From Octopus vulgaris (taxonomy: Eukaryota): a DNA stretch of 64,000 nucleotides. The number at the start of each line of letters is the position of its first letter. Position 1 is the first letter of the stretch. Below, in pieces: positions 21,523-57,243 of this stretch. A program made the translations under genes and the position numbers. The notes under the pieces are model-generated. The model saw only the letters and a list, made by a program, of their open reading frames with translations, was not told the DNA's origin and made no database searches. The stretch covers positions 30,008,001 to 30,072,000 of the forward strand of contig OX597824.1 of NCBI GenBank assembly GCA_951406725.2. Reading direction: 5' to 3'.

Positions 21523-21619
<97 letters not shown>

Positions 21620-21772
21620 TAGTAGAATGAATTATCTTGTTCTGGATAATTCGGTTAACCGATACCTGGGTAGCAAATTCACATCAGAGAAGACACGTTT
21701 GAAGTTACATGCTTTCGTGTGGAAATTTGTATGTTTTTTTTTAAATATAAATATATGAAAGAACTTTTAGAT

Positions 21773-21818
21773 AACTGCTCACACGGAGCCCATCGCTATG
21801 GGCTCCGTGTGAGCAGTT
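21773..21818. repeat. Perfect 21-bp hairpin with 4-nt loop
   Basis: AACTGCTCACACGGAGCCCAT-CGCT-ATGGGCTCCGTGTGAGCAGTT. Confidence 0.97.
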
Positions 21819-21843
21819 TTTGTGCATCTTGATGTTGACATAA

Positions 21844-21944
21844 GTTCCTTGCTTTTCCTGATGAGAAAGCGGCATAATATACTCCTTATTCCTTCGCAAT
21901 TAGGAATATGCAGCCTTCGAAACATATGTCGAAAATAAAGGAAT
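21844..21944 (+). ncRNA. Type I hammerhead ribozyme, canonical core
   Basis: Stem I TTTTC/GAAAA extended by GTTCCTT/AAGGAAT across a 2x2 loop; CTGATGA 21858-21864; stem II GAAAGCGGCATA/TATGCAGCCTTC; GAAA 21919-21922; palindromic CATATG; GUC cleavage triplet ending at 21930. Confidence 0.85.
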
Positions 21945-21979
21945 TTTGTTAATTCGTAGTTCAACTCCAGTCTTTCATA

Positions 21980-22011
<32 letters not shown>

Positions 22012-29513: not shown

Positions 29514-30760
29514 CCAGATATGACAGAAGTAAATAGACACCCCATAAAACATCGTTTATGTTTATTCTAACTTGTAAAGGCTTATCCTTTTTATTAATTG
29601 ACATTTTTATGTTTCAGATTACATATGCGGCTGTTTAATCATGCCATGTACAAAAGAAGCCTTGGAACTGTCTGAATTTCAAAGAGACTGTATTGTAGGT
29701 CATTCTGAAGGTGGAATTAGTCAGCGTAAAATCGCAGAAAATCTTCGGATCCCATGTTCTTCAGTTAATAGAATGATTGGGCAATTCACCAGAGAGGGGA
29801 AGGAGTCCACATCACCTCGCCCAGATCAACCAGGGCTTTCTGACAGGACCCTTCTCTTTATTAAGAAAAATTTGAACGATAATCTTCGTTGCAAGGCCTT
29901 TGGCATAGTAGAACAAGTTGATGTAAGTCCCAGACCGGCTGTCAGGTATCTCCACAAATTTGGTTACTAAGGCAAAACAGCAAGAAGGAAGCCACCTCTT
30001 CGACCAGCCAACATTAAGTGGAGAAAAGATTGGGCCAGTGAGATGGGGAAAAGGCCACTAGCATTTTGGGACACTCTCATATTCTCTGATGAGTTCAAAT
30101 TTGCTGTATTTCCTGACAGTGATCGAGTGTGAGTCTGGAGACTCTGTGATCAAAAATTTGAAGGGGAAAAGATTGCAGCCAACAATGAAAGAAGGCAGCT
30201 ATTCTGTGATGGTTTAGAGGATAATTTTGAGCAATGGTTGATCAGAGCTGAGGGAGTGTGAGGGAAACAAACACAGATAAATATGCGTCCATATTGCAGA
30301 AAGGATTCTTTCCAGACTTCTCCAGTGGGGAAATGATTAAAGAAGAATATTTATGGAAGATGGGGCTCCTTGTCATACGGCTAAAATGATCAAAGATTTG
30401 TTGGATGAGAATGGCGTTAAAAAGCTTCCCTAGTCGGGCCAGTCATCAGATATGAACTCTATTAAACGCCTCTGGAACATAATAGACAGAACACTTCATA
30501 AAAAGAACAAGAAAGCATCTTCAAAGCCAGATCTTTTGACATAACTGCATGAAACTTGGCAAGAAATTCGCTAGAGAATATTCGTCAGCTGATCAGTAAC
30601 ATGCCTGATAGGGTCCTTGCATTGATAAAACAAAGGGCATGTCTACTAAATATTAAATATTCATATAATAACACTTAATAAATAATTTGAATGTATACTT
30701 TCAGATTTAAATAAATTTTAATGATTATAAGGGTGTCTATTTACTTCTGTCATGTATTTG
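29514..30760 (+). mobile_element. Tc1-like DNA transposon with pseudogenised transposase
   Basis: TIR core ATGACAGAAGTAAATAGACACCC at both ends, TA flanks; [24 protein letters not shown]; downstream IFSDEFKF, EDGAPCH and SSDMNSIK-LW-like remnants with stops and frameshifts. Confidence 0.92.
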
Positions 30761-36105: not shown

Positions 36106-36777
36106 CTTATCGTTGTTGTTATCGATATCTCAGCGATGAGGTTTTGTATCTTTTTAGAAATTATTCTAAATTAAAAAGAGAAAGAGAACAAAAATACATA
36201 CGCACATACATTCATCAGTATATACATACATACATAAATGCACGTATTGACATACATATATACACAAAGATACATATATAAATACTCTCATATCCACATA
36301 TATACATCCATTCACATGTGTGCATTCATACATACGTATATACATATATACATACTTACAAACGTACACACATACATACAAACATACATACATGCTTACA
36401 TACTTATGTATGTATATACAAACTTACATATACACATGCTTACATACATACATGTAAGCATACATACATACAAGTTTACATACATACATTCTTACATACT
36501 CACACATACACACACACACATACATACATATATACATACATACATACATACATTCATCAATATATACATATCTATATACATACATGCACGTATTGATATA
36601 CATATATGCAAAGATACATACACATATATATACCTACCTGCATACATATCTGTAAGCAGGCATTTACATGGGTACACTCATACATGCATATACATATATA
36701 CATACATAAGTACGTACTACGTACATACATACATACATACATACATACATACATACATACATACATACATACATACA

Positions 36778-36805
<28 letters not shown>

Positions 36806-36808
<3 letters not shown>

Positions 36809-37260
36809 GAATAACAAGCCGGATTTTGTTATTTGGGACAGAGGGGCAAAGGTATGTACCGTCATAGAGTTCAGCTGCTCTACAGATATAAATATCTCTT
36901 TGAAAATCAAAGAAAAACAGGATATCTATGGACATGTGCTTCGAAACCTCCAGCTTCTACATCCAGAGTATGAATTCATATTCATATCAATAATAATTGG
37001 AGCACTAGGTTTTGTCAGTAAAAGCTTAAAGGAGAATCTGGATAAACTGGAATTTTCAGAAAGAGAAATCGACCGGCTAATTCGTACATTACAAGTGCAA
37101 TATGTGAGTGGAACAGTAAAAATATGCAAGACTTTTCTCAAGTTCCAAATGTGAATTTGTCAGTGTTAACTACATCTCATCTCAAAGATGGAGCCTTGTA
37201 TCTTTGTTGGAAACCGACTCCCTACTCAGTGGAAGATTTATAATAATTTAAAAAATAAGA
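36806..37260 (+). mobile_element. 5'-truncated R4/Dong-like non-LTR retrotransposon (restriction-like endonuclease domain and 3' UTR)
   Basis: Open frame NKPDFVIWD..VIEFSC..KIKEKQDIY..IIIGALG fits the PD-(D/E)xK RLE motif of R2/R4-group LINEs; stop at 37154; (TACA)n on both sides. Confidence 0.85.
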
Positions 37261-47940: not shown

Positions 47941-48202
47941 ATACACAGACAGTCATGCACTCATACACAGCCAGTCATATATATATAGAGTGATTGTTGA
48001 ATAGATTCAAATCTATGTTGACTGGTGATACAGTATGGACGGATTTTCGAAGTCCAACGATACCCTACACACCTATTTGGTTATGAAGATTTACAAACAT
48101 ACTTTCTCAGTGAGACTCGATATACCTACCATTATGGGTAATACCAAATGTACCTTTCGGATTTTTCATAACGTGATGTAAATCTTTGGTATCGCAATTG
48201 CA

Positions 48203-48295
48203 TGCGGCTGAAGAGAGCTTTAAACCATCCTTTATGTCGATTATACATTGATGTAAGAATAGGTCATTTATAAAGCTTGAAACATGTGTACCGCA
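48203..48295 (+). ncRNA. Type I hammerhead ribozyme, canonical core
   Basis: Stem I TGCGG/CCGCA; CTGAAGA 48208-48214; stem II GAGCTTTA/TAAAGCTT with long extension; GAAA 48279-48282; stem III CATGTG; GUA cleavage triplet ending at 48290. Confidence 0.83.
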
Positions 48296-48326
48296 ACATC
48301 CTTTGAGTTCTGTTTTTGATTTCATT

Positions 48327-48364
<38 letters not shown>

Positions 48365-49678: not shown

Positions 49679-50563
49679 CAGGGTGATTGAAAAAAACTCC
49701 CAATTTTAAAATACTTGTAATTTATTTCTTAACTATGATTTTTTTCTCAAATTTGTTGTGTTTGTTTTTTAATTCACGGAAATTGATTCTCTGTTGTTTT
49801 TTTCTTATAGTTTATTTTGGAGTTTAGGAGGCGATGTTGGATGGTATGAAGAATGGTCTGATGTCTTTAAAAATATCCTCTGGAGTGATGAAGTGGTGTT
49901 TCACATTGGTGGATTTGTGAACCATCACAACTGCTACTACTGGGCAGGAGAAGATCCTCGTATTACCTCTGAAAAAATACAGAATCGGCCCAAGGTAAAA
50001 GTATGGAGTGGAATGACTTTGGACAGGATTGTGGGTCCTTTCATCCTTTGCAATACCATGAATGCTGAAAAGTACCTCATGAAATCTGACCAGTTATCAG
50101 TACTTGGAAGAATATTGAAGATTTGATTTTTATGCAAGATGGCACTCCTCCACATTTTTCTATTGTTGTTCCTGAATGGCTGAATGCCCTCTTCCCTGGC
50201 AGATAGATGGGTCATCAAGGTCTGCATGATTGGCCAACCAGAAGCCCTGTGACTTTTTTCTTTGGGGTTAGTTAAAGGAGCAAGTCTACTCTACCAAACT
50301 TTGGAGGGACTTGAAGGGCAAATTTGAGAAGTTATGTCTTCCATCCCACAAGAGCTCCAAATGAAATCAGTTGATGCAGTTCCTGGGCTGCTTGAGAAGC
50401 TGGGAATGAATGCTGGTGCCTATCTCGAATGTATATATATATATATATGTATATGTATATATAATGCCCAATTGACTCTACTATACTGTGTAGACAACAG
50501 AATCCAAAACAAACAATGTGCATGAGTGAAATTACAAATATAAAATGGCAACAATTTACCCTG
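49679..50563 (+). mobile_element. Internally deleted Tc1/mariner-superfamily transposon (DD37D-like), pseudogenised
   Basis: TA|CAGGGT...ACCCTG|TA ends; ILWSDEVVFHIGGFVNHHNC, KVKVWSG..IVGPF, QDGTPPH and WPTRSP..DFFLWG motifs with frameshifts. Confidence 0.88.
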
Positions 50564-55965: not shown

Positions 55966-57243
55966 AATCCCATAAATAATGCAGTTTATTTATACTTCTT
56001 TTAATTTTCAAAATTAAAATAAACAAAGTTATTTTTTAATCTAGAATATACACCCCTTCATTTTCTACAATGCTCTTCTATCTATCTCGTAAACTTGCAA
56101 GGCCTCTCTTCCAAAATTCATTCGCCTGTGATGAAAAATATTCTTCCAATACTGTTCAAACTTCATCTATAAAATCCAAATTTTTTCCGTCCAAATGATT
56201 TTGAAGACTGCAAAATAAATGATAATCAGATGCAGCAATGTCTGGCGAATATGGTGGGTGGGGCATCGTTTCCCATTCACACTGCTCCAGCCTTTGGAAT
56301 GTCATCATTTCTGTTGGTGGCCGAGCATTATCCTGATGGAAAAACACTTTTGGTCTTGAAACCAAAGATGGCTGTTTCCTTCTAGCGCTGACTTAAGCTG
56401 CTCAGGCTGCTTGCAGTAGATCTCTTTTGTTATCATTTGTTATCGTGTAAAGGTTCAAAGTGGACTAAATTTTTCATGTCCCACCAAATAGATAACAACA
56501 CTTTATGTATGTGAAGACCTTCTTTAGCCTGGGATACCAGTGTTTCTCCTTTCCCTACCCCGCTGTCTTTGGTGCTTGACATTTTTATAGAGAATTCATT
56601 TCTCATCACCAGTTAGTATTCGGTCTAAAAAAGGCTCATTCGAGAGATGTGACAGCAAAAAAGAGACACATTCACTCTCTGCATGTGATTACACTTGACG
56701 AGTTTGTGAGGAACCCATTGACCCAATTTGCTGACTTTTCCAATGGCACGCAGGTGCCAAGGAATAATTGAATGTCCAAATCCAAGTTTCTCTGCTAGTT
56801 CCTCAGCAGTTACAATGGGATTTTGTTCCACCAGGGTTTGCAGGATGTCCTCGTTGAGCTCTACAGATGCTCCAGGATGAGGCTCGTCTTCTAGGCTGTA
56901 GTTTCTGGTTTGGAATTTCTGGATCCGCTGTTGACCCTGGTTTGCACTTATTCTCCAATCCCCATATACTGTATTAATATTCCTTGCACTTTCCATTGCG
57001 TTGTTGCCTTTATCGAACACATAAAGCAAAATATGCCGAATATGTTCCTTTGTCATTTCCATTATAGCTTTGAAAAAGTAACTTAAAATCGAACTGCATT
57101 CTTCAAAACTTCCACTAAGACTAAGAGTAAGGTAAAATTACTACCTGATCTTATTGGCAGTTGGTGCAGGTAGTTTATCTTGTCCTTCTCCAACTATTAG
57201 TTCATGCAATTGAACTAATATATAGATATACTAATTGACCCAA
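55960..57243 (-). mobile_element. Mariner (DD34D) transposon with pseudogenised transposase
   Basis: EHIRHILLYVF..WVPHKL, ILTGDEK, FHQDNARP and HPPYSPDIAASDYHLF motifs split by stops and frameshifts; degenerate TATTGG termini within TA tracts. Confidence 0.93.

Follow-up and report, generated by a model that had tools for sequence, protein, structure and literature searches.

A hammerhead ribozyme motif with a stem II arm of 64 nt lies at positions 48203–48295 of the window, that is, the whole 64-kb stretch of Octopus vulgaris DNA that was analysed. The question raised by this locus is what kind of sequence carries such a motif, and whether the long arm is a new functional part. Our analysis makes it very probable that the locus is the 5′-truncated 3′ end of a Penelope-like element (PLE) of the Hydra clade sitting in a TA repeat, with a hammerhead predicted to act only as a dimer. 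The long arm is likely a feature that the lineage tolerates and not a new catalytic part.

The motif is a type I hammerhead, which was read directly and was also recovered by a structure scan of both strands of the window. Stem I is formed by 5 bp between 48203–48207 and 48291–48295 (all positions on the + strand). The catalytic core CUGAAGA occupies 48208–48214, found by sequence and by the scan, and is near-invariant in 65 copies of the family. The arm of stem II (48215–48278) consists of a proximal helix of 8 bp (48215–48222 with 48271–48278) whose first pair is G-U, a variable middle, and a distal hairpin of 10 bp (48232–48241 with 48247–48256) that includes three G-U pairs. The arm is followed by GAAA (48279–48282), by the stem III octamer (48282–48289), a palindrome with one CpG-type C>T change at 48285, and by the GUA that closes the block 48279–48290, with the cut predicted after 48290. 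CUGANGA, GAAA, an NUH site and three helices, open at stem I, together give the type I layout. Every part of the original prediction that concerned an intact hammerhead, its 64-nt arm, the 8-bp stem II opened by G-U and the G-U wobbles in the arm is in place. Stem III had been given as CATGTG; this helix exists, but the palindromic octamer is the more useful reading. A second core-like stretch near 48021–48055 had neither an A15.1 position nor a stem I and was dropped.

Copies of the sequence were searched in the octopus's own genome (2.8 Gb, 227 contigs). The first look gave 1,295 candidates, 40 of which were scored, and the near-full-length matches were 88–94% identical and located on many contigs. 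A second query gave 2,175 first-look candidates, and a 22-mer of the family had 262 exact matches. The 5′ ends of the copies are ragged, whereas the 3′ ends cluster at two discrete positions, one about 45 nt and the other about 117 nt beyond the predicted cut. Among 74 distinct 3′ ends (81 loci), 33 were short, 40 long and 1 of another type, a ratio that reflects queries favouring these two end types and is not a genome estimate. TA adjoins 70 of the 74 ends, and all 15 head-to-head inverted pairs (15/15) combine one short end with one long end. An inverted truncated copy with a tail on one end is described as a PLE pattern in PMC8557442. 5′ truncation, an inverted 5′ copy and a tail on one end only were all found in the family. 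At least 8 instances, 99% identical, were found of a multi-kilobase block that holds a family copy (L023–L028 and L031–L038, on contigs C1, C21, C35 and C36). It lies mostly on small contigs, is segmental duplication or assembly redundancy, and inflates the copy counts. Family sequence is present in sequencing runs labelled as three organisms. Assembled contigs of four runs, two of them guessed to be RNA, cover the family end in a form from which strand, ends and level are not readable.

The link between the ribozyme and an ORF was made by walking upstream through simple-sequence 3′ UTR. The family comprises an ORF with RT and, at its C terminus, GIY-YIG, a long 3′ UTR, the hammerhead, a first 3′ end about 45 nt past the cut, and a second 3′ end about 70 nt beyond, with the tail between them. 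In tandem copies the tail continues into the 5′ UTR and the start codon, and the ORF starts about 200 nt after the cut site. Locus L181 has the order TA, tail, 5′ UTR, ATG, RT, Asn-rich spacer, GIY-YIG-like domain, 3′ UTR, hammerhead and short end, and its 3′ UTR holds nested insertions. In L263 a decayed ORF stands between hammerhead-bearing direct repeats, and L264 is likewise a decayed direct-repeat copy. An ORF with RT and GIY-YIG, flanked by pseudo-LTRs that hold the hammerhead, was found in L181, L263, L256 and L261. The suggestion that the motif is of Penelope type, and that an associated RT/GIY-YIG ORF would be reached by extension, was thus confirmed (L181, L263).

There is also a sister subfamily, whose ORF start shows about 75% identity. 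It has intact frames of 842 aa in L260, L262 and L267 (three of the eight sister loci examined over 10 kb), and its pseudo-LTRs hold the hammerhead and are up to 99.6% identical. Piece by piece, the ORFs of L181 and L263 are 49–87% identical to these intact frames (L181 51–67%). Homologues of the sister ORF include Argonauta proteins at 39–41% identity; the homologues carry PF26215, and some also PF01541. Pfam gave a weak result for the family's own decayed ORF, with RVT_1 at E 0.011 and no GIY-YIG match. Searching the genome with GIY-YIG returned mostly Neptune-like elements, and no link to the family appeared in the 30 loci and 14 regions examined.

The clade definition in PMC8557442, in the sections that treat the Hydra clade, names DKT for DKG, a GxKF/Y that is not conserved, RWK, CxCx5C, CxxC, CxH, no CCHH, and (TA)n insertion. 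DKT is present in L263 and L260, and DKI in the decayed L181. GxKF is absent in both the family and the sister and present in the Neptune-like control L127. The CxCx5C linker, CxxC..E and CxH were found in L181 and L260, the Neptune-type linker is absent, and CCHH was not found, by eye, in L181 and the sister ORFs. At the RWK position RW is present and the third residue is A (RWA). Judged by its ORF motifs and (TA)n target, the putative parent element fits the Hydra-clade definition.

Two side observations concern other elements of this kind. L260:1440-5856 is an intact unit-length element without a pseudo-LTR; both its boundaries fall at one and the same short-end site and overlap by about 10 nt. 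The starts in L226, L227 and L232 are likewise near the short end. L127:406-4088 and L137:581-4282 are a young Neptune-like PLE of 781 residues, with many repeats of the same frame length and an upstream open frame. The scan gave no standard hammerhead in it, and it may have a rearranged one or none.

The same window contains a second ribozyme, and we compared the two. It belongs to the 3′ end of another Hydra-clade family (21610–21985, + strand), with the hammerhead core at 21858, an arm of 54 nt, and an inverted piece of tail that makes up the first ~150 nt at the 5′ side. The structure scan missed it because its stem II has an early mismatch. Its family is very abundant, with 7,738 first-look candidates for an ORF piece of 84 residues. 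The two window elements gave no DNA match at E ≤ 1. Nevertheless, over 610 residues the ORF of this family shows 37% identity with the sister ORF, and its representative L270 has DKT, CxxC..E and CxH and lacks CxCx5C. These protein comparisons would place both window ribozymes in one clade (Hydra) despite the lack of DNA similarity. The shared architecture without shared sequence, as first noted, was therefore reproduced; the description as an unrelated family holds for the DNA but not for the proteins. A heterodimer of the two ribozymes was considered and rejected, since the octamers could pair and the stems I cannot.

The family was then set beside published systems. Hydra-clade PLEs as described by Craig et al. 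(2021; PMC8557442) have, like the family, a single ORF with RT and C-terminal GIY-YIG that carries DKT, CxCx5C, CxxC and CxH. They also share insertion into (TA)n, in tandem or inverted arrangements that bear a tail, and they too have a type I hammerhead close to the 3′ end, in which stem III is short and self-complementary. However, stem II with its loop measures 10–24 nt by eye in the 26 Hydra rows of File S2 of that paper, including 22 nt in Hydra-1_Obim, compared with 64 nt here, about three times as much. The elements of that source are shorter than 3 kb with tails of 30–40 nt, whereas a sister-subfamily unit is about 4.5–4.8 kb and the tail here is about 70 nt. Asn-rich ORF inserts, a long simple-sequence 3′ UTR and RWA for RWK also set the octopus elements apart from those described there. 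A precedent for long arms is the hammerhead of PLE-X1_sMoe, whose arm is about 50 nt in the same File S2. Unlike the family, this is a spike-moss element that lacks the endonuclease and targets rDNA, and it is flagged there as deviating.

Minimal PLE hammerheads, in the account of Cervera and de la Pena (2014; PMC4209133), are likewise of type I, occur in pseudo-LTRs and as solitary copies, and have a palindromic stem III. The descriptor given in that source allows a stem II of 3–7 bp, a loop of 3–10 nt (an arm of no more than about 26 nt) and GAAAnnUH only, and it fails to match the window motif on both counts. The 64-nt arm exceeds the short stem II of the descriptor and so marks a variant, the descriptor being a search setting. 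Poseidon PAc of Anolis (Frangieh et al. 2024; PMC11167929) belongs to a different PLE clade. It resembles the family in its AT-rich targets and in two RT starts inside the RNA past the hammerhead, which define the tail; for the octopus family such starts are our inference. Its ORF starts inside the hammerhead, in contrast to about 200 nt after the cut here. The known kind is the Hydra-clade PLE hammerhead, and the variation lies in arm length, element length and abundance.

Stem III of the family is a palindrome of 8 nt specific to it, and its CG form, which is perfect, occurs in 31 of 44 distinct family motifs. This is a short palindromic stem III able to pair between two copies, as in PLE hammerheads that act as dimers. 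When folding was calculated, the active monomer fold was 2.3 kcal/mol above the minimum, with an ensemble share of <1%, and the minimum-energy fold of the 111-nt strand mispairs the catalytic core. For two strands of the window copy, the double hammerhead is the minimum-energy homodimer (−49.2 kcal/mol versus 2 × −21.5, or −43.0). The sister ribozyme and the one at 21.8 kb have alternative dimer folds whose energy is the same or lower, and the unconstrained minimum-energy dimer differs. On these folding models, the window hammerhead is predicted to work as a dimer. The published PLE hammerheads are reported to cut weakly and as dimers in PMC4209133 and PMC6765202, the former describing them as dimer-dependent and slow in vitro.

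The palindrome was also analysed across families, in a sample made up of the 66 long-arm matches that head the list for contig 1, from 60 regions, which fall into 31 sequence groups. A Watson–Crick palindrome was present in 40 of the 66 motifs and a G-U-compatible one in 16 more, with 10 different palindromes. By group, the Watson–Crick form was found in 20/31, versus 2.9 with halves swapped. As a separate observation, stem III is not palindromic in one family (L302, L315, L066:2697-2777 and L174:5681-5761). Each of the four copies seen forms a helix of 3 bp there, closed by a GA loop (4/4), and this family might cut as a monomer.

The original prediction had asked for compensatory changes in stems I and II. 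In 65 distinct close copies 97.5% of the cells pair, which the shuffle control does as well, and two-sided changes were 0 in 23 pairs, where copies about 90% identical give little power. Among 7 subfamily representatives, 2 of the 5 pairs in proximal stem II had changed on both sides, compared with 0 of 4 in stem I and 0 of 10 in the distal hairpin. Shuffles gave totals as high, and in 3 of the 7 the opening position of stem II was mismatched. The outcome of this check is mixed: two-sided changes are absent among close copies and no commoner than in shuffles among subfamilies, and across families the stems are kept. Stem I of at least 4 bp was found in 12 of the 31 groups versus 0.4 after swapping, and stem II of at least 4 bp in 18 of 31 versus 4.5, in a sample in which some groups are inter-related and the ORF link is established for two clades. 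The strong signal of conservation is across families, which keep stems I, II and III with different sequences.

How the insertion would work can be proposed by analogy with the Anolis PLE. The endonuclease would nick (TA)n, and reverse transcription would begin inside the RNA at one of the two sites. For the window copy, it would have begun at the proximal one, ended about 320 nt later and left an inversion of 24 nt. In the RNA, as the dimer folding and known PLE ribozymes suggest, the stem III palindrome would hold two copies together, each would exchange its stem I strand with the other, and two active sites would result. The partners could be both pseudo-LTRs within a tandem transcript or could come from separate transcripts, and the paired sites would trim tandem RNA to unit length. 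The genomic copies give no sign of cut RNA as template. 5′ truncations are not enriched at the cut site, where one of the five matches without upstream A breaks exactly; breaks within 2 nt of it number about 1 among the first 100 listed of the 262 22-mer matches; and many full-length copies continue through the ribozyme into the upstream pseudo-LTR. The role of PLE hammerheads is stated as open in PMC8557442, and in the Anolis PLE, as described in PMC11167929, the hammerhead needs the element's own protein and is dispensable for insertion in vitro.

We then considered the long arm itself. Pattern matches with arms of 40–70 nt numbered 40,872 in the genome versus 1,643 for a reversed-pattern control (25-fold, about 39,000 above control), and those with arms of 9–39 nt numbered 18,110 versus 1,523 (about 16,600 above control). 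These patterns ignore stem pairing, one locus may match both, and decayed cores are missed. With two long-arm motifs, the 64-kb window lies close to what the genome shows on average (about 0.9). Arms of this length prevail in the genome and are unusual only relative to the literature. The claim that the arm is atypical thus stands against published Hydra-clade and minimal PLE hammerheads, but not within the octopus, where long arms outnumber short ones. The largest per-genome counts in PMC4209133 are about 4,000 and about 9,000, compared with about 56,000 above control here, obtained by a different search in which stems were not required. We found no description of such a long-armed hammerhead in the octopus literature covered, and examples of long stem II may exist in papers and supplements beyond that coverage. 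In an O. vulgaris repeat annotation that names Penelope-like families (PMC13282606), "hammerhead" and "ribozyme" have 0 occurrences.

It may be asked whether so widespread an arm is a selected module, such as a site bound by the protein of the element or a switch in folding that gates dimer cleavage, which would make the motif a real hammerhead sub-type. We consider this unlikely, although it is the alternative with the most in its favour. Long arms number about 39,000, are spread over at least 31 groups of sequences and persist in clades only 37% identical in protein. Proximal stem II is kept across groups as described above, and folding of the arms is more stable than that of shuffles (z has a median of −1.9 and is below −2 in 28 of 66). 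Protein dependence of the Anolis ribozyme points in the same direction. However, the arms of the two window elements have no common sequence, and the distal hairpin has no two-sided change. Indels shift the arm length, which is 51, 61, 62 and 64–66 nt in one clade. In the sister subfamily, where ORFs are intact and pseudo-LTRs are 99.6% identical, 11 nt corresponding to one strand of the distal hairpin are missing (an alignment that leaves out L189 and L264). Moreover, short arms are found in about 16,600 motifs with this layout. We rate a tolerated arm clearly above a selected module because the length shifts freely and a young subfamily has lost a hairpin strand. The proposal of a distinct functional subclass is not borne out.

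A more far-reaching reading is slightly more doubtful still. According to it, octopus-like Hydra-clade PLEs would have spread a long-armed, dimer-only sub-type to about 39,000 sites, with the arm as a selected protein-binding or gating module and with stem I and the stem III palindrome as a family barcode. If the barcode were true, each of dozens of co-resident families would cut only with its own kind; if the spread were true, the sub-type would escape both Rfam and the published descriptor. A pairing of the arm loop with sequence 5′ of stem I was tried and dropped, being absent by eye in sister subfamilies and broken in the window copy. Two other motifs, L178:2252-2371 (−) and L095:3109-3234 (+), have arms of 85 and 91 nt, one of them folding at −38 kcal/mol, and fall outside the 40–70-nt count.

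It is very improbable that the locus is a non-autonomous non-LTR retrozyme, whose ~340-bp unit would be cut, circularised and copied by a borrowed RT. The majority of copies are short and non-coding, and the family resembles the animal non-LTR retrozymes described in PMC7229834 in having a type I hammerhead in a low-GC repeat of ~300–400 bp. The retrozymes of that source, however, are non-coding tandem units, whereas the family forms the 3′ end of an element that encodes protein. The ragged 5′ ends reach kilobases into the 3′ UTR and ORF, which largely refutes a retrozyme. In addition, adjacent copies of the family in 60 loci lie inverted to one another, and head-to-tail arrays of short non-coding units (150–400 bp, as in retrozymes) were not seen there. 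A retrozyme-like array of a different family was seen on contig C1 (5011305-5012441), with three identical long-arm motifs head to tail, 534 nt apart.

The window copy itself is a PLE 3′ end of about 350 bp within (TA)n, ending at the family's proximal (short) 3′ end. A short (TA)n run at 47977–47987 is the left part of the likely target microsatellite. It is followed at the truncation point by an inverted piece of 24 nt (47985–48008, − strand), identical at 23/24 positions to family upstream sequence in L023 on the opposite strand. The truncated 3′ end, part of a pseudo-LTR, occupies 48012–48335 (+) and was assigned by its copies, its ends and ORF continuity. The right part of the likely target is (TA)13 at 48332–48357, and the 3′ ends of the family run into TA. 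The unit first drawn at about 47990–48330 is indeed bounded by TA on both sides, but its left part includes the inverted family piece. Co-option by the host, in which the copy would be a working ribozyme in a transcript, is if anything less credible than a retrozyme. The core and all stems are intact, and the base at 48295 turns a U-G pair into U-A. On the other side, the copy differs from the majority of its 10 closest matches at 9 of 320 positions, 3 of CpG type, as in neutral decay. One of the changes, C>T at 48285, weakens the dimer helix (−6.0 versus −10.3 kcal/mol), and the 64-kb window has no further copy of this family. The window copy is an ordinary, slightly decayed family member and, alone in the window without a partner, is probably inert.

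The structure scan reported stems of 5, 8 and 2–3 bp at a single site, listed twice for two stem III registers. Across 200 block-wise dinucleotide-shuffled windows the control gave 0 strict and 0.04 loose matches per window. A chance arrangement in AT-rich DNA can practically be set aside, for although the 111-nt strand alone folds no better than shuffles (z −1.0) and Rfam gave no hammerhead match for the motif even at E ≤ 10, no strict match arose in the shuffled windows, the genome excess over the reversed pattern is 25-fold, the motif has a fixed position at the 3′ end of PLE copies, and the stems are kept across 31 groups above swapped controls. A broader Rfam search of the window likewise had no hammerhead among the matches listed (150 of 263). 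The Rfam miss is a limit of the models and not a defining loss.

Other features of the window were noted in passing. An open frame at 36597–37154 (+) gave no meaningful Pfam match; its C-terminal part resembles the restriction-like endonuclease end of an R4/Dong-type non-LTR element. Fragments at 56625–57137 (−), 49773–50126 (+) and 29602–29970 (+) resemble mariner/Tc1 transposase.

The intact ORFs, the arm variants of 51–66 nt and the sharp paired 3′ ends make the arm, the dimer and the protein dependence directly testable in this clade. Most hammerheads of the genome are overlooked by a census whose limit for stem II is about 24 nt, and the published hammerhead counts for such animals may be far too low.
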